This document shows, in pieces, positions 11,957 to 39,267 of a stretch of 54,888 nucleotides of DNA; the stretch's first letter is position 1; every line of letters begins with the position of its first letter. The translations under genes were made by a program, and so were the position numbers. Source of the DNA: a virus (Duplodnaviria; Caudoviricetes); the IMG/VR virus record IMGVR_UViG_3300033143_002805, positions 1 to 54,888 of that record. One strand, written 5' to 3'. The notes beneath the pieces were generated by a model, which had not been told where the DNA came from, ran no database searches, and saw nothing but the letters and a program-made list of their open reading frames with translations.

Positions 11957-12169
11957 ATGAACGAGAAAGAAAAAGGTCTCCGCTATACTACTACTGTGGA
12001 CTTGGATGTTGCTGGAATGTATGCGGAGGAAAGATGTAAACATTGTTCAGGTCGCGGCATCCTTAGCACACAGGTTAGTTCAGGTGGTACTATTCGTAAA
12101 GATAAAGCAGTTGAACATAGAGTTGACTATTGCTCATGTGTTCGTAAAAATGTAAGGAAATACGGATGA
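11957..12169 (+). CDS. Small Zn-finger protein (DnaJ-like CxxCxGxG)
   Basis: CKHCSGRG and YCSCV; ATGA overlap with the next gene. Confidence 0.65.
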   Translation: MNEKEKGLRYTTTVDLDVAGMYAEERCKHCSGRGILSTQVSSGGTIRKDKAVEHRVDYCSCVRKNVRKYG

Positions 12170-12615
12170 ATTGGGACGAGTTCTACATAGGAATGTGTTT
12201 GCAAGTTTCTAAAAAATCAAAAGACAGGAGTACTAAAGTAGGCGTTGTCATAGTCACTCCAGACAACACTCTTCTATCTATTGGTTTTAACGGATTCCCT
12301 CGCGGCATTGATGATGAAATCGAAAGATATCATGAGCGTCCCATGAAATATCGAATCACAGAACACGCCGAGCGGAACGCTATCTATAACGCTGCTCGTA
12401 ATGGTATTCGCCTGCAAGGCTCTATCATGTATCTACCGTTCGAGCCAACCCCTTGTACAGACTGTACTAGGGGAATAATTCAAGCAGGTATAGTAGAAGT
12501 CAGAGGCACAAATGCTAAATTCCCCGGCAAAGGCACGCAGTGGGACGAGGATCTAGCCATTGCGAAGGAAATGCTGGACCACGCAGGTATTAAGCGTACG
12601 GCACTTAACTGTTGA
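12166..12615 (+). CDS. dCMP deaminase
   Basis: SKDRSTKVG, GFNGFPRG, HAERNAI, PCTDC. Confidence 0.93.
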   Translation: MNWDEFYIGMCLQVSKKSKDRSTKVGVVIVTPDNTLLSIGFNGFPRGIDDEIERYHERPMKYRITEHAERNAIYNAARNGIRLQGSIMYLPFEPTPCTDCTRGIIQAGIVEVRGTNAKFPGKGTQWDEDLAIAKEMLDHAGIKRTALNC

Positions 12616-12693
12616 CAGTAAAAATTTATTACAAAAACTGAACTTAAAAAGTAGAGTGCAACTTTTACTTGGGTCACGAACGGTGTAGTTATA

Positions 12694-12876
12694 GATGGTC
12701 GGGACTAACACGGGCGAAACACTCCCCGTTAAAAGCGACACTCCTCGATCATTAACAACAGACGGTAAGATATACTACAAAGATAAGCGTTAAGGTTGGA
12801 AAGATTTACTAAAAATAAAACACACAACAAAAGCAATTAAACCTAGTAGCACACCGTCATTAACGTGTCGCCTTAA
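12694..12876 (+). ncRNA. Candidate structured leader RNA upstream of nrdJ
   Basis: Complementary pairs 12694-704/12742-52, ACGGG/CCCGT, GCGACAC/GTGTCGC, GACGGT/ACCGTC, TACTA/TAGTA, AGGTT/AACCT. Confidence 0.5.
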
Positions 12877-12883
12877 AACTAAC

Positions 12884-12922
12884 GGCCCGCTCTGTACGCA
12901 CGCATAGAGCGGGTCTTTTTTT
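12884..12922 (+). terminator. Intrinsic terminator 18 nt before nrdJ start
   Basis: GGCCCGCTCTGT / ATAGAGCGGGTC stem followed by T7. Confidence 0.8.
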
Positions 12923-12940
12923 ATCAACGGAGGATCATCA

Positions 12941-15487
12941 ATGGGTGCATTTACCAATTCTTTTTCAGAAGAAACATGGTATCAAAAATACAAATTCGAA
13001 AATGATACGTGTGTTGAGGACACATGGGCGAGAGTTGCAAAAAACCTTGCATCAAAAGAAAGGTATAGCACTAAGTGGGATAAACGATTCTACTCAATAC
13101 TAAAAGATTTTAAATTTGTCCCAGGCGGACGAGTTACGTCCAACGCAGGAACAGGTCTACAGGGCACAACGCTGGTCAACTGTTTCGTCTCGGGTCCAAC
13201 AGGTAAAGATATAGACTCTATTGAGGGAATCTATGGTGAGCTACTTCGTCAGGCCCAAATCTTAAAGAGCGAAGGTGGTTACGGCTTTTGTTCTGATTTT
13301 ATGAGACCAAACGGGGCTCATATTCACGGTATTGCCAACCAATCTCCTGGTGCTGTAAAGTTCCTAGAGCTTTGGGATAAATCCTCCGAGATCATTACTG
13401 CCGGATCAAACAAGAAGGCCGAAAAGGGCGAAAAAAACTTCATTCGTAAGGGTGCCCAGATGGTCACGATGTCCTGCTGGCATCCCGATGTATTGGAATT
13501 TATAGTAGCAAAGAAAACCCCTGGCCGATTGACCAAATTCAACATGTCTGTCCTCTGCACTGACGAATTCATGGAAGCAGTAAAGAATGACGACCCCTGG
13601 CTCCTCAAGTTTCCCAACTACAAACTCTATCCCAAAGATTACAAAGAGTCTTGGGACGGAGACATTAATGTATGGGAAAAATTGATCCTAAGCAAGTACG
13701 ATCCCGAAGGCAAAGGAGACGACCTCTCAAGTATTGTCCTCTACGATACTCCAGTTAAGAAGGCCCGCGATCTCTGGGACTTGATAATGGAGAATACATA
13801 CAACCGAAATGAGCCGGGGGTACTGTTCGTAGACACTATGAACCGCATGAATAATCTAGGGTATGTAGAGAATATCAACGCGACCAATCCATGCGGAGAA
13901 CAGATACTCCCCATCGGAGGGGTGTGTCTACTTGGCTCTATTAACTTGGTTCACTTTATTGATCCTGATACTAAAGAATGGAAATGGGACGAACTAAAGG
14001 CTGCGATCCACGACGCTGTTCGTTTCATGGATAATGTGAACGATATCACTAATGTCCCCCTAAAATCTCAGAGGAAAAACCTCCAAGACAAGAGACGTAT
14101 TGGACTAGGTATTTTGGGATATGGCTCTGCATTGCTAATGGCTCGTATCAAGTATGGTAGCAAGAGAGCATTAGAAATGACCGAGAATCTTATGCAGGTT
14201 TTCACTAACGAAGCATATAAGACTTCGGCACTATTAGCCAAGGAAAAAGGTGCTTTTCCTCTCTATGATGAAGAGCAATATCTATCGGGCGAATTCATTA
14301 AACAGCTTGACCCTAAGACTATAGCTCTGATTAAGAAGCACGGAATACGTAATTCCCACCTGACTTCAATACAGCCAACCGGCAATAGTGCGTGCTTTGC
14401 GAATCTGCCCAGTGGTGGTCAAGAGCCGCTATTTATGCACGGCTACGTTCGTACAGCAATTCAGCCATCAGCTCCAGAGTTTTTACATGAACCTATTAAT
14501 ATAGATTGGGATAAAAAGAAGCACGAGAATATACAGGCAGAGGGTCAACCAGAGACTCATTGGAAATGGATTAAAGAAGGGGATGAAGACCTTCTAGCTA
14601 CTTTATTTGAAGGTAAAACCTGGAAATTTGATCGTAATCGTGGGCTTACAAAAGAAGAGTGGATTGAAGACTATGGGGTTTCATATTTAAAATCAGTTGA
14701 CAAATGGAATCCTGATGCTCAATGGGCGTCTTGCACTATGGATTTAGATGTAGATGCCCATATTAACACAATGTCAATCTTCGCAAAATGGGTAGATTCT
14801 GCCATCTCTAAGACTATTAACCTTCCCAATGAATATCCTTATGAAGATTTCAAGCTGGTGTATAAGAAGGCGTGGGCTAATGGCATTAAAGGATTTACGA
14901 CTTATAGGGCAGGTACAACAATCTCTGTTTTGGCAGCGGAATCCTCCTTATCTGACAACAAAGATAAGATCCGCAAGACAGTAGCCCCAGTCCGTCCGCG
15001 AGAGTTACCGTGTGATGTGTATCATATTAAGGTAAAAGGCGAGTCCTACTTCGTATTGGTGGGTATCTATAATGGTGACCCTTACGAGGTGTTCGCGGGC
15101 AAGAATGGATTCCTGGACAAAAAGGTTGTTAGTGGGACTATAATAAAGCTAGGTAAACCTAGGGGAGTATATAAGGTTATACTGTCGGATGGCCTAGAAT
15201 TATCACCCATAAATGCCACATGTTCTGCCGAAGAAGATGCTTTAACACGCATGACATCAACCGCCCTACAACACGGGGCCGACATGCACCTGATTGTAAA
15301 GCAGTTGGAGAAGGTTAAGGGAGATATGCATACTTTTGCCAGAAGTATGGCACGAGCAATCAAAAAATACATTCCGAATGGTGCAAAAGAAAATATTGCC
15401 TGTCCAGAATGTGAAGCGACAGATGGTTTAATTCGCCAGGAAGGGTGTATTACTTGTCTGTTATGTGGCTGGAGTAAGTGTGGGTAA
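12941..15487 (+). CDS. nrdJ: Class II (B12-dependent) ribonucleotide reductase
   Basis: PGGR, TLVNCF, TNPCGEQ, QPTG, AISKTIN; C-terminal TSCPD-like domain and Cys ribbon; no small subunit nearby. Confidence 0.9.
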   Translation: MGAFTNSFSEETWYQKYKFENDTCVEDTWARVAKNLASKERYSTKWDKRFYSILKDFKFVPGGRVTSNAGTGLQGTTLVNCFVSGPTGKDIDSIEGIYGELLRQAQILKSEGGYGFCSDFMRPNGAHIHGIANQSPGAVKFLELWDKSSEIITAGSNKKAEKGEKNFIRKGAQMVTMSCWHPDVLEFIVAKKTPGRLTKFNMSVLCTDEFMEAVKNDDPWLLKFPNYKLYPKDYKESWDGDINVWEKLILSKYDPEGKGDDLSSIVLYDTPVKKARDLWDLIMENTYNRNEPGVLFVDTMNRMNNLGYVENINATNPCGEQILPIGGVCLLGSINLVHFIDPDTKEWKWDELKAAIHDAVRFMDNVNDITNVPLKSQRKNLQDKRRIGLGILGYGSALLMARIKYGSKRALEMTENLMQVFTNEAYKTSALLAKEKGAFPLYDEEQYLSGEFIKQLDPKTIALIKKHGIRNSHLTSIQPTGNSACFANLPSGGQEPLFMHGYVRTAIQPSAPEFLHEPINIDWDKKKHENIQAEGQPETHWKWIKEGDEDLLATLFEGKTWKFDRNRGLTKEEWIEDYGVSYLKSVDKWNPDAQWASCTMDLDVDAHINTMSIFAKWVDSAISKTINLPNEYPYEDFKLVYKKAWANGIKGFTTYRAGTTISVLAAESSLSDNKDKIRKTVAPVRPRELPCDVYHIKVKGESYFVLVGIYNGDPYEVFAGKNGFLDKKVVSGTIIKLGKPRGVYKVILSDGLELSPINATCSAEEDALTRMTSTALQHGADMHLIVKQLEKVKGDMHTFARSMARAIKKYIPNGAKENIACPECEATDGLIRQEGCITCLLCGWSKCG

Positions 15488-26187: not shown

Positions 26188-27304
26188 GTACAAGGATCAA
26201 GCGAAGCTTAACGGTCTGACCGCAACTGTTCTAGATAATATTGATGATATCTACGAGTACTTTGAGGTACGATACAAAACGGGAGAAAAACTTATCTTCT
26301 CCCCTTGCTTTATTCATGGCGGTGATAATAAATCAGCCCTGAATTTATATTATAACGCCGACTACAGGACACACTACAAGTGTCGTACTCACCAGTGTGA
26401 AAACCACTTTGGTACATCCCTGCTCAGCATGGTGCGAGGCGGGCTATCCCATATTCGTTACGGCTGGACAGTCCCAGGTGATAACGAAGTATCTTTTGAA
26501 GACACAGTTGACTTTCTGCTTGAACGTCTAGGTGTAACCTTCGCGGGACTTAAAGGAGAGACTCATAGGGCTGACCATCAAGACTTCTGTAGGCTAGTCA
26601 ATACCTTACAAGAAACAACTTCTCTTAGTGGTATAGTTACTAGAGATTACTATAGAGAAAACGTAGAGATTCCCTCTCAATATTACTTACAGCGAGACTA
26701 CTCAATAGAAGTGCTCGACGATTATGATGTTGGTACTTGTACAACATATGGCAAGTCCATGTTTAATCGGGCAATGGTACCCATATACAGCGATGACGGT
26801 ATACATATTGTAGGCTTTACCGGACGCAGTATCTTTGAAGCGTGCAAGAAATGTGCATCTTACCACGATCCCAAGAAAAAATGCTATCATTTTCCCAAAT
26901 GGAGGCACACAAAAGGCTTCGAAAAGGAAAAGTGCTTGTATAATTATTGGAAGGCGAAACCACACATTCTGGAGACGGGGGTGATTATCCTCGTAGAATC
27001 TCCTGGAAACGTGTGGCGTCTAGAAGAAGCTGGTATACATAACGCTGTTGCTTTATTTGGCACCATACTTAACGATCCGCAAAAATCTCTTATTGATGAA
27101 TCCGGTGCTCTCTCTATTATTGTACTGATGGACAACGACGACGCTGGTCAAAAGGCAGCAGAACGCATCACAGAACTATGTCAGAAAGCATATCGACTTT
27201 ACTTTCCAGACTTTAGCGGTAATGATATTGCAGAACTCAATACCGACTCTATAACTTCGGATATTTTACCCTGGATCAACCAAGCAAAGGAAACTTACAA
27301 ATGA
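26162..27304 (+). CDS. dnaG: DNA primase (Zn-binding + Toprim)
   Basis: CFIHGGDN..C....C, GFTGR, LVESP, MDNDDAGQKA. Confidence 0.88.
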   Translation: MTKKTWSSKYKDQAKLNGLTATVLDNIDDIYEYFEVRYKTGEKLIFSPCFIHGGDNKSALNLYYNADYRTHYKCRTHQCENHFGTSLLSMVRGGLSHIRYGWTVPGDNEVSFEDTVDFLLERLGVTFAGLKGETHRADHQDFCRLVNTLQETTSLSGIVTRDYYRENVEIPSQYYLQRDYSIEVLDDYDVGTCTTYGKSMFNRAMVPIYSDDGIHIVGFTGRSIFEACKKCASYHDPKKKCYHFPKWRHTKGFEKEKCLYNYWKAKPHILETGVIILVESPGNVWRLEEAGIHNAVALFGTILNDPQKSLIDESGALSIIVLMDNDDAGQKAAERITELCQKAYRLYFPDFSGNDIAELNTDSITSDILPWINQAKETYK

Positions 27305-27525
27305 GCGTTAAGCAGCATTCCGTGGACTATCTCAGAAACAAGGCTAAGGCAGATCAATCAGCAGCTCAGCTATCGCTAGAACTACTAATGGACCAGTCTG
27401 CTGGTATTGGAGATCATTCTACAGGCGATTTTCATAAGAACTTAGATCAGGCTCTAGACTTGTTACTGGATGCCGAAGACCGTCTAGAACTCCTTGATAA
27501 GTATTACAATAAAGAAGGTGAATAA
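27301..27525 (+). CDS. Hypothetical protein
   Basis: Small coupled ORF with a GIGDHS motif. Confidence 0.7.
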   Translation: MSVKQHSVDYLRNKAKADQSAAQLSLELLMDQSAGIGDHSTGDFHKNLDQALDLLLDAEDRLELLDKYYNKEGE

Positions 27526-30364: not shown

Positions 30365-30931
30365 ATGGATAAGCAAAGTGATAGGTGGTATGCCGAAACA
30401 GCAAGACATAATAAGCATTGGAATGATAAAGAAAAGGTTTATTTAAAAAAGAACTACACTAAGCTTAGTATAGATGAGTTAATGGAAGATATGGGCCGTA
30501 CCGCTCGCTCAATTCATATGGCAGCTTATAAGTTAGGGATCAGTCGTGAAAAAATCTTGGTGATAGATGGTACTAAGAAATGTTCAACATGCCTTAAAAT
30601 TTTACCTATTGGTGAGTTTCATCTATCTTCTAATAATAAAGTTACAGGACTACGTTCTGACTGTAAGGATTGCGTTCGAAATCAGACCTATCTTAGAAAA
30701 TATGGTATAACTCTTAAACAATATGAATCTATGTTAAAAGATCAAAATCACAAATGTTATATTTGTAATAATAAAAGAAATGGAGAAATTGTATTTAATA
30801 TCGATCATTGTCATACTACGGGCAAGATTCGTAAGATACTATGTAATGGCTGCAACCGAGCCTTGGGCTTTTTTTTAGATCGTTCTGACTGGATGCGAAG
30901 AGGTGCTAACTATGTGGAGGAATATAGCTAA
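30365..30931 (+). CDS. Endonuclease VII-type homing endonuclease
   Basis: KYGIT..Y..ML..Q...C.IC, IDHCH.TGKIR..LC..CN..LG. Confidence 0.88.
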   Translation: MDKQSDRWYAETARHNKHWNDKEKVYLKKNYTKLSIDELMEDMGRTARSIHMAAYKLGISREKILVIDGTKKCSTCLKILPIGEFHLSSNNKVTGLRSDCKDCVRNQTYLRKYGITLKQYESMLKDQNHKCYICNNKRNGEIVFNIDHCHTTGKIRKILCNGCNRALGFFLDRSDWMRRGANYVEEYS

Positions 30932-32823
30932 TGAAAACATACATACCACTCCACTGCCACTCCGAGTACAGTCTATTAGATGGACTATCTAAATGTCAAG
31001 CTATAGTAGAGCGTACCCTGGCTATTGGTGCCACGGCTTGTGCTCTAACAGATCACGGTAGCGTGTCTGGTGCTGTAGACTTTGCTGGCAAGATGAAAGA
31101 GAAAGGCTTGAAGCCTATCTTGGGCTCTGAGTTCTATGTATGTCGTGGTCTAGTAACGCAGAAAGATAAAGAAAATCGCCCGCTAGATCACCAAGTAATA
31201 CTAGCTAAGAATCATCAAGGCTGGAAAGATTTACTAGGCCTTACTTCCTTCGCGAATAAAAAAGAACACAGCTACTATAAGCCGCGTCTTGATATTGACG
31301 CTATAGCTAAAGCTGGCAGTCAAAAAAACCTTATATCATTCAGCGGTCACTTAGGGTCTATCTTAGCCAATGCTATTACTGATGGAGATAGACTTGATCC
31401 CGACTGGATGAAAAAGGGTATTGCATGTTCAAAGAACTTAGAGAACATATTCGGCAAAGGTAACTTCTTCATTGAGATTCAGCTTATTGACTCAAAGATA
31501 AATATCTTCGCAGGAGTAGTCGCTAAGGCTTTGAGACAGATCGCGGTCAAAACCGGCATTCCCTGTCTCGCTACACCCGACGCTCACTACTGCTCTAGAG
31601 ACGACGCAGAGGATCAACAGGTGTTGCTCTGCACGAATTTTAAAAAGAGTATAGGGCAAGTACACCGAGAATTAAAACAGGGCACGGCAAACAACACCCT
31701 GGCTACATTTTTCAAGTCGAACAACTATCACATCCCATCATATGAGGACATGATTGAGTTTCACACCGAAGCAGAGTTAGTGAACACACGAGTTGTTGAG
31801 GACATGTGCGAGAACTACAATATCTTACGTTCTCCTGATCCTCCCAAGTTTTCGTGTCCTAAAGGTATGGACCCAAATGAGTACTTGAGATATCTATGCC
31901 GCACAGGATGGGCAAGTAGAATGAGTCATATTGATAGTGACTCTGATAAATTTCCATCCTATGGAGAACGAATTAATCTTGAACTAGACATATTTACTAG
32001 TATAGGTTTATCTAGTTACTTCTTAATTGTAGATGACATACTTAGATTTACACGCAGTCGTGGCTATCTTACTGGCCCTGGACGTGGATCGAGTGCTGGC
32101 TGTATGGTATCCTACTTGTTAGGAATCACTCAGATCGAACCCATCAGATACAACCTTATCTTCGAACGATTCTATAATGCTGGACGTAATACGCCCGGCA
32201 AGATATCGTGGCCGGATATTGATTTCGATGTTCCTAAAGCTGCAAGGGATGAAATTGTCGAATACGTCCGCAATAAGTACGGAGCAGATAATGTAGCTCA
32301 GATTGTGACATTCCAAACCCTCAAGGGGCGGGCCTCACTTAAGCGAGTTATGAGTGCGAGAGGCAACATATCTTTCGATGAGCAGAACGCGATCACTAAG
32401 AACATTGTGGATGAGAGCAAGATCGCGGACGAGCTGGGCGACATCAAGGCCGAGTATGGTATCTCGTCCGTCATCCTCTGGGCTTTGGAAAATAACTCTG
32501 GCAAGCTTAAAGAGTGGTGTACAATTGGAGAAGGAGGTAAGCTAGAAGGTCGTATGGCTAAAATTTTTGAACAAGCCATTAGGCTAGAGGGAACTAAGAT
32601 TATCTCGGGTAAGCACGCTGCGGGCATTGTTATTTCGGCCCAACCGATTAGTGAATCCTGTCCGATGGTCTTAGATAAACAGGGGCAATATCAACTGGCC
32701 GGATTTGAAGGGCCAAGTTGCGAGGATGTTGGGCTACTTAAGCTGGACTGTCTCGGACTTTCTGCACTAGACAAACTTATGGACGCGGCCAAGATCGCGT
32801 CGGGAGAAGATGATGTCGACTAG
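30931..32823 (+). CDS. dnaE: DNA polymerase III alpha, N-terminal half (PHP + palm)
   Basis: LHCHSEYSLLDG, TDHG, GPGRGSSAG, PDIDFD, KHAAG; ends shortly after KLDCLGL. Confidence 0.92.
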   Translation: MKTYIPLHCHSEYSLLDGLSKCQAIVERTLAIGATACALTDHGSVSGAVDFAGKMKEKGLKPILGSEFYVCRGLVTQKDKENRPLDHQVILAKNHQGWKDLLGLTSFANKKEHSYYKPRLDIDAIAKAGSQKNLISFSGHLGSILANAITDGDRLDPDWMKKGIACSKNLENIFGKGNFFIEIQLIDSKINIFAGVVAKALRQIAVKTGIPCLATPDAHYCSRDDAEDQQVLLCTNFKKSIGQVHRELKQGTANNTLATFFKSNNYHIPSYEDMIEFHTEAELVNTRVVEDMCENYNILRSPDPPKFSCPKGMDPNEYLRYLCRTGWASRMSHIDSDSDKFPSYGERINLELDIFTSIGLSSYFLIVDDILRFTRSRGYLTGPGRGSSAGCMVSYLLGITQIEPIRYNLIFERFYNAGRNTPGKISWPDIDFDVPKAARDEIVEYVRNKYGADNVAQIVTFQTLKGRASLKRVMSARGNISFDEQNAITKNIVDESKIADELGDIKAEYGISSVILWALENNSGKLKEWCTIGEGGKLEGRMAKIFEQAIRLEGTKIISGKHAAGIVISAQPISESCPMVLDKQGQYQLAGFEGPSCEDVGLLKLDCLGLSALDKLMDAAKIASGEDDVD

Positions 32824-37564: not shown

Positions 37565-37641
37565 GGACTAGCATTGAATTTATATATTGGAATAGTTATG
37601 GTTGTGTGGGTTGTTGTACTAGAGTTTATAGGGAAACATTA

Positions 37642-39267
37642 ATGAAGGAAACAGTAACATTTGATTGCGGCTGTACCTTTAATGTTAACGAGAAAGGTCT
37701 GCCAGTATTCGAACCATATCTAGATAAGATCAGACTGACCTGTCCTGCTACTTGGGACATGATCTGCGAAGGTAACACTAAGGGCGTCTTTCAGCTAGAG
37801 TCACAGCTAGGTCAAAGTATGGCCTCTCAAACTGCTCCTCGACATATGGAAGAGCTGTCAGACCTCATTAGCATCATGCGACCTGGATGTCTTGAGGCTA
37901 TAGTAGAGGGAAAGAACCTGTCCACTCACTACATAGACCGCAAAGCTGGACGTGATTCAGTTAGCTACTTTCACCCTGCCTTGGAGCCAATCCTTGAGAA
38001 TACATACGGCATCCTGGTATATCAAGAGCAGGCCCTAGGCATTGCTAGGCAAATCGCGGGGTATAATTTACAGGAAGCGGAGCTACTGAGGAAAGCCATT
38101 GGTAAGAAGAAGATTCAACTTATGGCTAAGGTTAAAGCCGAGTTCTTTGACAAGGCTGTGGGCTTCGGAATCATTAATCTAGAAGAAGCAGAGGAAATAT
38201 TTAGCTGGATTGAGAAATCTCAACGGTACTCATTTAATAAAAGTCACGCTATAGCCTATGCTCATAACGGCTACCTAACAGCTTTTACAAAAGCCCACTT
38301 TCCCCTGGCCTTTTTTACCGCTTGGTTGCGACACGCGAAGGGAAAGCAAAACCCGCACATGGAAATTCAAGACCTTGTGAACAATGCTCGCCTGATGGAC
38401 ATTGATATCGTTCCTCCGAGTATTTTGAACATGAATCGAGTATTTAAATTAATTGATAACAAACCTACGTACGGAATTACTGACATAAAAAGAGTAGGCA
38501 GTTCAGTTTTCGACCAAATTCGTGGTGTAATAAAGAACAACAAATATGATTTAGCGGGATTTACCTGGGACGTGTTCCTGATGAAGATGGGGCGAATCAT
38601 TAAATCTGACTCCTTTAAAGCTATAATATTGGCTGGGGCCTTAGACTGCTATAAAGTTTCTCGTATGAAGATGATATATGATCTGGAGTTGTATCGAGAG
38701 TTTAGAGATTCTGACCGTAAATACCTAGAGACTGTAAAATGCAGTACATTTAAAGACGGCCTAGAACAAATCTTAACCAAAAAGATACCTCACGAAAGAC
38801 GCACAGCTCACACAGACCGCTTTATTGAACTTACCCGTAGCTCCATGAGAGCGTTAGACAACCCGCCTTATCAACTGGTAGACAGCCCCGCCTGGATAGC
38901 TAAGCAGGAGCGAGAGTATCTAGGTATCGCCTTGACATGTACTGAGATTGACGAGCACGATATCGGTGACGCCAACTGTACCTGTCGAGATTATGCACAA
39001 GGATTTAGTTCTCACTCTATTGCTATAGCTGTTAAGGTAGATGACTTGCGAGAATGGAAAATCAAAAAAGGAAAGAGCAAAGGAGAAACAATGGCTTTCT
39101 TAAAAGTGAGTGATGGAACATGCTCCTTAGATAACGTAACTATGTTCCCAGAAGCTTGGGAGAGGTACTGTCAAGACATACGTATTGGAAGTTTGCTATT
39201 GCTGCGAGGACAACGCGATAAGAATCGTGGAAGTTTTCTAGTAATGCGTGTTAAAAAGTTAACGTAA
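37642..39267 (+). CDS. dnaE: DNA polymerase III alpha, C-terminal half (fingers, HhH, OB)
   Basis: GNTKGVFQLES, RPG, TYGILVYQEQ, LRKAIGKK, YSFNKSHA..Y, MAFL..SD. Confidence 0.92.
   Translation: MKETVTFDCGCTFNVNEKGLPVFEPYLDKIRLTCPATWDMICEGNTKGVFQLESQLGQSMASQTAPRHMEELSDLISIMRPGCLEAIVEGKNLSTHYIDRKAGRDSVSYFHPALEPILENTYGILVYQEQALGIARQIAGYNLQEAELLRKAIGKKKIQLMAKVKAEFFDKAVGFGIINLEEAEEIFSWIEKSQRYSFNKSHAIAYAHNGYLTAFTKAHFPLAFFTAWLRHAKGKQNPHMEIQDLVNNARLMDIDIVPPSILNMNRVFKLIDNKPTYGITDIKRVGSSVFDQIRGVIKNNKYDLAGFTWDVFLMKMGRIIKSDSFKAIILAGALDCYKVSRMKMIYDLELYREFRDSDRKYLETVKCSTFKDGLEQILTKKIPHERRTAHTDRFIELTRSSMRALDNPPYQLVDSPAWIAKQEREYLGIALTCTEIDEHDIGDANCTCRDYAQGFSSHSIAIAVKVDDLREWKIKKGKSKGETMAFLKVSDGTCSLDNVTMFPEAWERYCQDIRIGSLLLLRGQRDKNRGSFLVMRVKKLT

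Follow-up and report, generated by a model that had tools for sequence, protein, structure and literature searches.

The DNA analysed here, called the window throughout, is a 54,888-nt (54.9-kb) fragment of an uncultured virus (IMGVR_UViG_3300033143_002805) with an estimated completeness of 35%. A gap of 325 nt (12616-12940) separates the ORF of a dCMP deaminase (12166-12615) from that of a ribonucleotide reductase (RNR, 12941-15487), which is of the class II type and carries lgN, barrel and TSCPD domains. The module around the gap is one of nucleotide metabolism and replication, with dUTPase, thymidylate synthase, dCMP deaminase, RNR, helicase, dNMP kinase and a split DNA polymerase. The polymerase is encoded by two ORFs (30931-32823 and 37606-39267) that match positions 42-614 and 622-1054 of the PHROG 405 profile and lie about 4.8 kb apart, with several small genes between them. 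An earlier reading of the window, made without database searches (the sequence-only reading), took the gap to be its longest non-coding stretch. This is incorrect, as longer ORF-free stretches are found at 26188-26701 (514 nt without ORFs of at least 50 aa) and at 26188-27524 (1337 nt without ORFs of at least 90 aa), the latter between a DnaB-like helicase and the dNMP kinase and with no match in Rfam. A tRNA/tmRNA scan of the window returned none. Contigs from four DNA runs show no letter differences from 12550-13000, except for one short X9 piece that is less than 90% alike, and thus offer no usable variants of this region. Among public runs, no RNA run was listed as containing the locus.

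The gap and the start of the RNR gene (nrdJ) contain the following features, from 5' to 3':

12647-12666, plus strand: A/T-rich inverted repeat AAAAGT ... ACTTTT with an 8-nt spacer, about 15 nt 5' of the -10-like box (read from the sequence)
12682-12692, plus strand: -10-like box, degenerate in the window (GGTGTAGTTAT; relatives have GGTGTATAAT)
12694-12703, plus strand: 5' strand of helix P1, pairing with 12744-12753
12704-12727, plus strand: junction and P2 hairpin (12710-14/12725-29 and 12716-17/12722-23, from the predicted fold)
12728-12741, plus strand: invariant core GTTAAAAGCGACAC, the 3' portion of which is the 5' strand of helix S2
12744-12753, plus strand: 3' strand of P1, beginning 2 nt after the core
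12754-12864, plus strand: P3 domain, a long imperfect hairpin (outer stem 12761-66/12853-58, then 12773-77/12844-48)
12795-98/12825-28, plus strand: apical mini-stem GUUG/CAAC of P3 (predicted fold)
12824-36, plus strand: conserved A/C-rich stretch in P3 (from column conservation)
12865-12874, plus strand: 3' strand of S2, GTGTCGC and the letters that follow, pairing with 12735-41 inside the P1 loop
12875-12883, plus strand: A-rich linker from S2 to the terminator, like the linkers of relatives with a hairpin terminator
12884-12922, plus strand: intrinsic terminator with a 12-bp stem (12884-12915, 7 of 12 pairs G-C), an 8-nt loop and T7 (12916-22)
12929-12943, plus strand: Shine-Dalgarno sequence GGAGGA (12929-34) and ATG (12941) of the class II RNR gene

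The helices named in the sequence-only reading could all be located. Its outer stem (12694-704/12742-52) is present, in a register that is near-equivalent, with a bulge, to the P1 given above, which consists of 10 contiguous pairs, 3 of them G-U. The inner hairpin ACGGG/CCCGT lies at 12710-14/12725-29, and P2 can form in two registers in the window. The nested arms GACGGT/ACCGTC (12761-66/12853-58), TACTA/TAGTA (12773-77/12844-48) and AGGTT/AACCT (12793-97/12840-44) make up P3. At 12884-12922 a G+C-rich hairpin is followed directly by a U-run, as in an intrinsic terminator; this hairpin begins about 12 nt after S2, and the ribosome-binding site follows 6 nt after the terminator. The distance from the T-run to the ATG is the 18 nt that had been counted, and the remark that this leaves no room for a separate promoter holds for the window and extends to relatives, where the corresponding interval is about 17-38 nt.

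The half-sites of the A/T-rich inverted repeat are kept in L002, L007, L023, L031 and L042, while the spacer letters vary (judged by eye). The repeat might serve as an operator on the DNA or weakly signal the end of the deaminase gene, and it is uncertain whether it belongs to the element. The -10-like box lies 3-10 nt, mostly 5-6 nt, before P1 in relatives. Across 29 sequences, its columns 2-6 (GTGTA) never vary, and conservation reaches 90% or more in columns 1, 7, 8 and 11; one of the pattern scans described below required the -10 motif, so that the loci derived from protein searches are the only set unbiased for the box. The box is a putative promoter.

No Rfam 15 family was matched at the gathering score in the whole window. 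A permissive search of 12500-13050 (E up to 10) gave 7 weak matches, most of them over the terminator and none to a riboswitch family. The cobalamin, purine/2'-dG, SAM-II, SAM-V and preQ1 models in particular had no match, either at the gathering score on the window or permissively on 12500-13050. Thus, the leader RNA is not a cobalamin riboswitch, in agreement with the sequence-only reading, which had seen no B12 box, and the class is absent from Rfam. In the literature searched, no RNA motif tied to nrd genes in phages was found, and the main text of a paper on 224 motifs mentions neither nrd nor reductase. A catalogue of intergenic structured RNAs from IMG/VR holds 8495 candidates; 879 lie no more than 25 bp ahead of genes with known domains, and a terminator is present in 1241 (PMC10690425). 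These candidates come from the same data source and are the same kind of object as the leader RNA; their models are unnamed and span 29-151 nt, and the word reductase does not occur in the main text (PMC10690425). The catalogue may hold a fragment of the leader RNA, which otherwise appears undescribed.

Folding of the window sequence gave a z-score of -2.16 for the whole gap (2 of 100 shuffles as good) and of -1.40 for 12680-12880 without the terminator (21 of 200 shuffles as good). Folding of the minus strand did not surpass its shuffles (z -0.94). On the window sequence alone, the helices are therefore not clearly beyond chance, and their significance comes from relatives. An insignificant fold without the terminator would suit a gap with no RNA function, in which the helices arose by chance, a gene has decayed or the DNA itself acts, for instance as an operator or origin, and the upstream A/T-rich palindrome might serve as a DNA site.

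A protein search with the window RNR gave 134 confirmed relatives in viral contigs, and 77 loci were kept. Among the 30 loci with a close nrdJ and enough upstream DNA, 19 have a comparable gap and 11 have an ORF that abuts nrdJ. The abutting ORF is a dCMP deaminase in 6/6 loci checked. In the leaderless loci L008 (2339-2977), L012 (2336-2977), L016 (2056-2679), L020 (2346-2987), L061 (2371-2982) and L062 (2339-2959), the deaminase is about 60 aa longer, with a Pfam match over residues 6-180. As the RNA is missing from 11/30 close nrdJ loci, the leader is dispensable. The window gap and that of L002 align over 307 nt with 72% identity, compared with 77% identity between the RNR proteins, and remoter loci show the same blocks in unchanged order.

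Pattern scans extended the family. A scan of viral contigs for the core plus the second strand returned 56 stretches, 34 of them real: 31 by covariance model R2, two (L109, L122) by inspection, and L134 for its identity with L002. A scan running from the -10 box to the core returned 27 stretches, all real, 6 of them new. Scanning metagenomes gave at least 119 stretches, with 17 real among the matches listed. Scanning cellular genomes gave at least 120; among the matches listed, L177 and L193 alone score well (E about 1e-9), and 5 others are weak (E 0.024-0.058). L177 and L193 are 16-kb contigs of one metagenome-assembled genome labelled archaeon; L193 carries a phage-type leader and nrdJ, and the RNA region of L177 is identical to that of L013. 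Both look like viral contigs that were binned into the archaeon-labelled genome. Model R2 produced one false positive, L255, which was rejected by inspection, and missed L109, L122 and L315, all three of which carry a 94-nt P2 insert and were retained by inspection. In total, 27 distinct 5'-domain sequences were obtained from uncultured phage and metagenome contigs, and the leader RNA is so far found only in uncultured phage contigs. Searched against cultured phages, the window region had matches only within nrdJ coding sequence, from three records of uncultured huge phages; the L091 query matched only the nrdA coding sequence of Pelagibacter phage Mosig, and the L104 query had no match. The Mosig nrdA has no such leader and starts 9 nt after the DNA primase gene.

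The order of parts in members is -10-like box, P1, P2, core, 3' strand of P1, P3, 3' strand of S2, terminator and ribosome-binding site. The junction has the consensus AUAAAGARC in relatives, and P2 is very variable in length. The columns of the core, GUUAAAGCGRCAC, are invariant or nearly so across members; the window has one A more in this region than the other 28 sequences. In members, GUGUCGCUU 3' of P3 pairs back to the core. The S2 5' strand is separated from the P1 3' strand by 1-4 nt, and the P3 domain is 77-117 nt long. As the core lies within the loop of P1, P1 and S2 have the topology of an H-type pseudoknot, and the S2 5' and P1 3' strands lie as close together as a stacked pseudoknot requires. 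The complementarity of GCGACAC (12735-41) to GTGTCGC (12865-71), noted in the sequence-only reading, is thus present in the window, conserved in relatives and pseudoknotted with P1. Strand order and support for both helices agree with an H-type pseudoknot; helices that coexist and helices that alternate fit the sequences equally, so that the S2 pairing may represent either a pseudoknot or an alternative fold.

MAFFT placed the P1 arms out of register, and covariance models R1 and R2 were therefore used for alignment. When the 27 distinct sequences are aligned with R2, pairing in P1 reaches 96.9%, with double changes in 6/6 pairs; 53 double-change cells are counted over P1 plus the P2 base, as against 17.6 +/- 4.8 in shuffles (0/500 reach 53), and slid controls are 30-50% paired. 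P1 is 99.1% paired in an alignment of 18 sequences and 96.4% paired in an earlier alignment, as against 74.6% in shuffles, all of these alignments leaning towards the structure because they were fitted to it. One P1 pair occurs as CG in 9 sequences, GC in 8, AU in 6, UA in 2 and UG in 2. A positional test independent of these alignments found contiguous P1 stems of 5-11 pairs (median 9), compared with shuffle means of 3.4-6.2 and with per-sequence p values from 0.0005 to 0.29. A cross-pairing control was uninformative for P1, because many of its variants are related. Across the 27 sequences, pairing is 88% at the base of P2 (ARCG with CGUU), which extends into the core.

S2 consists of 10 pairs, and 94.5% of its 290 cells are paired, as against 30-52% when slid; it varies little, and three of the scans required its letters, so that the 10 protein-derived sequences and the 6 new loci of the box-to-core scan are the only ones unbiased for it. 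S2 is present in all 16 of these. A G-C to A-U exchange is seen in 3 related sequences, and the R position pairs as A-U in 16 sequences, G-U in 12 and G-C in 1. The frequent G-U pairs in P1 and S2 fit an RNA of the plus strand.

P3 forms a long hairpin in 8/8 members folded singly, with differing letters in the outer stem, so that the nested arm read from the window is retained in relatives of different sequence. By eye, the outer stem shows a C-G to U-A exchange between the window and L002. The apical GUUG/CAAC mini-stem is predicted in 5/8 of the folded members, beside the A/C-rich stretch. The sequence-only reading had made its case depend on conservation and covariation in related phages, and both are found, the latter in 6/6 P1 pairs. 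The compensatory changes in all 6 of these pairs across 27 sequences contradict a gap with no RNA function, as do the G-U pairs, which would be A-C mismatches on the opposite strand. The lengths of P2 and P3 also vary, with no reading frame kept and no ORF shared; L002 lacks the ATG of a 32-aa ORF at 12695-12793. A gap with no RNA function is thus very improbable.

At the 3' end, most members have a G+C-rich hairpin and U-run 11-18 nt past S2, followed by about 17-38 nt to the start codon. The terminator stem covaries among the window, L002 and L042, with double changes in 2 pairs. Six members (L103-105, L306, L374 and L375) instead have U6-7 directly after S2, and L372 has no terminator, its fold running straight into the operon. 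No antiterminator partner for the 5' arm of the terminator was found at a consistent place in members, the terminator being mis-called in several rows. A conserved ACGRC lies at the base of the terminator, and the S2 3' strand could pair with it in only 13 of about 24 sequences with a hairpin terminator.

An RNR is the first or second gene downstream in every member with enough sequence, including those found by gene-blind pattern scans; L351 and L378 end short of any large gene. Three types of RNR are found. Class II with TSCPD follows the RNA in the window, L002, L007, L010, L015, L023, L028 and L042, and the RNR of L377 has lgN and barrel domains with no TSCPD match. Class Ia NrdA with an ATP-cone follows in L091, L120, L333, L376, L103-105, L306 and L374, with NrdB next in those loci that extend far enough. 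A second class II type, which has an RNR-II insertion domain, is found in L106, L372 and L375, and L109 and L119 are placed with it by 53-57% identity to these three. The sequence-only description of the RNA as the leader of a B12-dependent nrdJ is therefore too narrow. A dCMP deaminase lies upstream in most members. As the locus is syntenic, the link with three RNR types may reflect gene replacement within the slot of one phage group rather than independent recruitment. Inteins interrupt the RNR gene in L042 (2995-6399) and L109 (8068-11601, minus strand), the L109 intein having a LAGLIDADG domain, and the gene after the RNR in L028 (5553-6995) is also interrupted by an intein.

Cobalamin and 2'-dG riboswitches are known beside bacterial RNR genes. 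The leader RNA resembles them as an RNA element in the leader of an RNR gene, and by this precedent it could be a diverged cobalamin riboswitch or another catalogued class (purine/2'-dG, SAM-II/V or preQ1). However, it has no B12 box and matches no model: no Rfam family reaches the gathering score, and none of the 7 permissive matches is a riboswitch. The same RNA also stands before B12-independent class Ia RNRs, and its occurrence before both B12-dependent and B12-independent enzymes is not predicted by a logic of B12 control. Descent from a catalogued riboswitch is accordingly extremely improbable.

In about half of the lineages, a small Lys/Arg-rich protein of 68-123 aa is encoded between the RNA and the RNR (L028, L103-105, L106, L109, L119, L306, L351, L372, L375 and L377/378). 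Representative genes are:

L028, 2757-2996: small basic protein gene
L104, 6825-7037, minus strand: small basic protein gene
L106, 12547-12852: small basic protein gene
L109, 11610-11870, minus strand: small basic protein gene
L119, 6765-7094: small basic protein gene
L372, 1107-1328: small basic protein gene

These proteins have no Pfam or PHROG match. They share a conserved N-terminal block, to which the longer forms add a C-terminal helix-like block. Their position would suit a leader recognised by protein: the fold might be an operator bound by the small Lys-rich protein, or by some other protein of phage or host, or might act on RNA polymerase to permit read-through, in the manner of put. 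The order of promoter, fold and terminator could be likened to that of promoter-proximal antitermination RNAs. Operators of phage gp32 offer a precedent, being known and predicted in bulk in the IMG/VR catalogue (PMC10690425). However, no homologue of the small protein is found in the 54.9-kb window (tblastn, best E 0.13), and in many members the small protein is not adjacent to the RNA. Recognition by a protein is therefore a quite unlikely explanation.

The main rival reading is a stand-alone phage small RNA gene, acting in trans upon targets in host or phage, or as a protein sponge, that occupies the slot between deaminase and RNR, with the RNR expressed by leaky read-through. A gene of this kind would have its own promoter and terminator; the terminator is present, strong and with a U tail in most members, and the -10-like box is conserved in relatives at a near-fixed distance to P1. 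ARN-like triplets are linked with Hfq binding, and conserved, apparently unpaired A/C-rich triplets of this kind lie at the P3 apex (12824-36). The failure to find an antiterminator in members, the synteny of the slot and the absence of the RNA from 11/30 close relatives point the same way. However, the -10 box of the window is degenerate, and the RNA and the RNR invariably share a strand, with the RNA close to the ribosome-binding site of the RNR. In L372, the fold lies without a terminator directly in the 5' UTR of an operon of the small ORF and the RNR. Furthermore, a 12-bp terminator with T7 placed 18 nt before an essential gene with no promoter of its own would starve the RNR unless read-through were controlled. 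A separate small RNA gene is thus possible, though we consider it somewhat unlikely.

We favour the reading that the gap encodes a cis-acting structured attenuator leader of about 230 nt that gates transcription of the RNR, and give it a probability of roughly 0.5. It is favoured because the space before nrdJ is too short for a separate promoter and a strong terminator lies within a conserved, covarying fold. With a terminator before nrdJ, any polymerase that expresses nrdJ must read through it. In relatives, the start of transcription would be set by the near-consensus -10 box, only a few nt upstream of P1; in the window, where the box is degenerate, the leader may be supplied by polymerases that continue from the dCMP deaminase gene. 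S2 could close only once P3 has been made, just before the polymerase meets the terminator, and termination or read-through would then depend on whether the pseudoknot core is locked at that moment. A protein might act as the lock, or a small molecule linked with the supply of deoxynucleotides. In the six relatives where U6-7 directly follows S2, S2 itself would serve as the terminator stem. Counting against an attenuator are the lack of a consistent antiterminator partner, the syntenic slot and the 11/30 leaderless close loci, together with an anatomy of box and terminator that is shared with a small RNA gene and the degenerate box of the window.

A conserved aptamer-like fold with covariation support and a constant class of downstream gene are both found here, as in riboswitches generally, the latter within a syntenic slot. 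As a tentative and rather unlikely extension of the attenuator reading, the leader might be a new riboswitch class of marine phages, whose pseudoknot core would recognise a deoxynucleotide or a metabolite related to one, with dATP or the dNTP pool as examples, and so exert feedback on transcription of whichever RNR is carried. RNR sets the supply of DNA building blocks and is among the commonest auxiliary genes in marine phages; to our knowledge, how phages control it is largely unknown. If dNTP sensing were true, the leader would be an RNA counterpart of NrdR and ATP-cone control and the first natural dNTP-sensing riboswitch; more generally, if a metabolite is sensed, it would be a riboswitch class with a type of ligand not known from nature so far. 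Should it prove to be a small RNA or an operator for a protein, it would nevertheless represent a new conserved family of phage RNAs with a clear model for database searches. In each case, a covarying pseudoknotted RNA before three unrelated types of RNR is a clonable object for tests of control of dNTP synthesis at the RNA level.

Among known leaders, the transcription-terminating ones with H-type pseudoknot riboswitches (SAM-II, SAM-V and preQ1) also combine a 5' leader position, pseudoknot topology, conserved letters in junctions and helices and variable hairpins with a terminator and ribosome-binding site directly downstream and a constant class of regulated gene. However, the present RNA has no Rfam match to them, is much larger (P3 inserts of 77-117 nt) and has no antiterminator pairing that could be found. 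The HK022 put RNA is similar in that a promoter and folded RNA precede a terminator that is to be read through; unlike put, the leader has a short, nearly constant distance to its terminator, like that of an expression platform or of the 3' end of a small RNA. A structured regulatory RNA has precedent in large marine phages with nucleotide-metabolism modules, as OM43 phage Melnitz and Pelagibacter phage Mosig are described as carrying a glutamine riboswitch, which differs from the leader RNA in fold and in gene context (PMC9004378).
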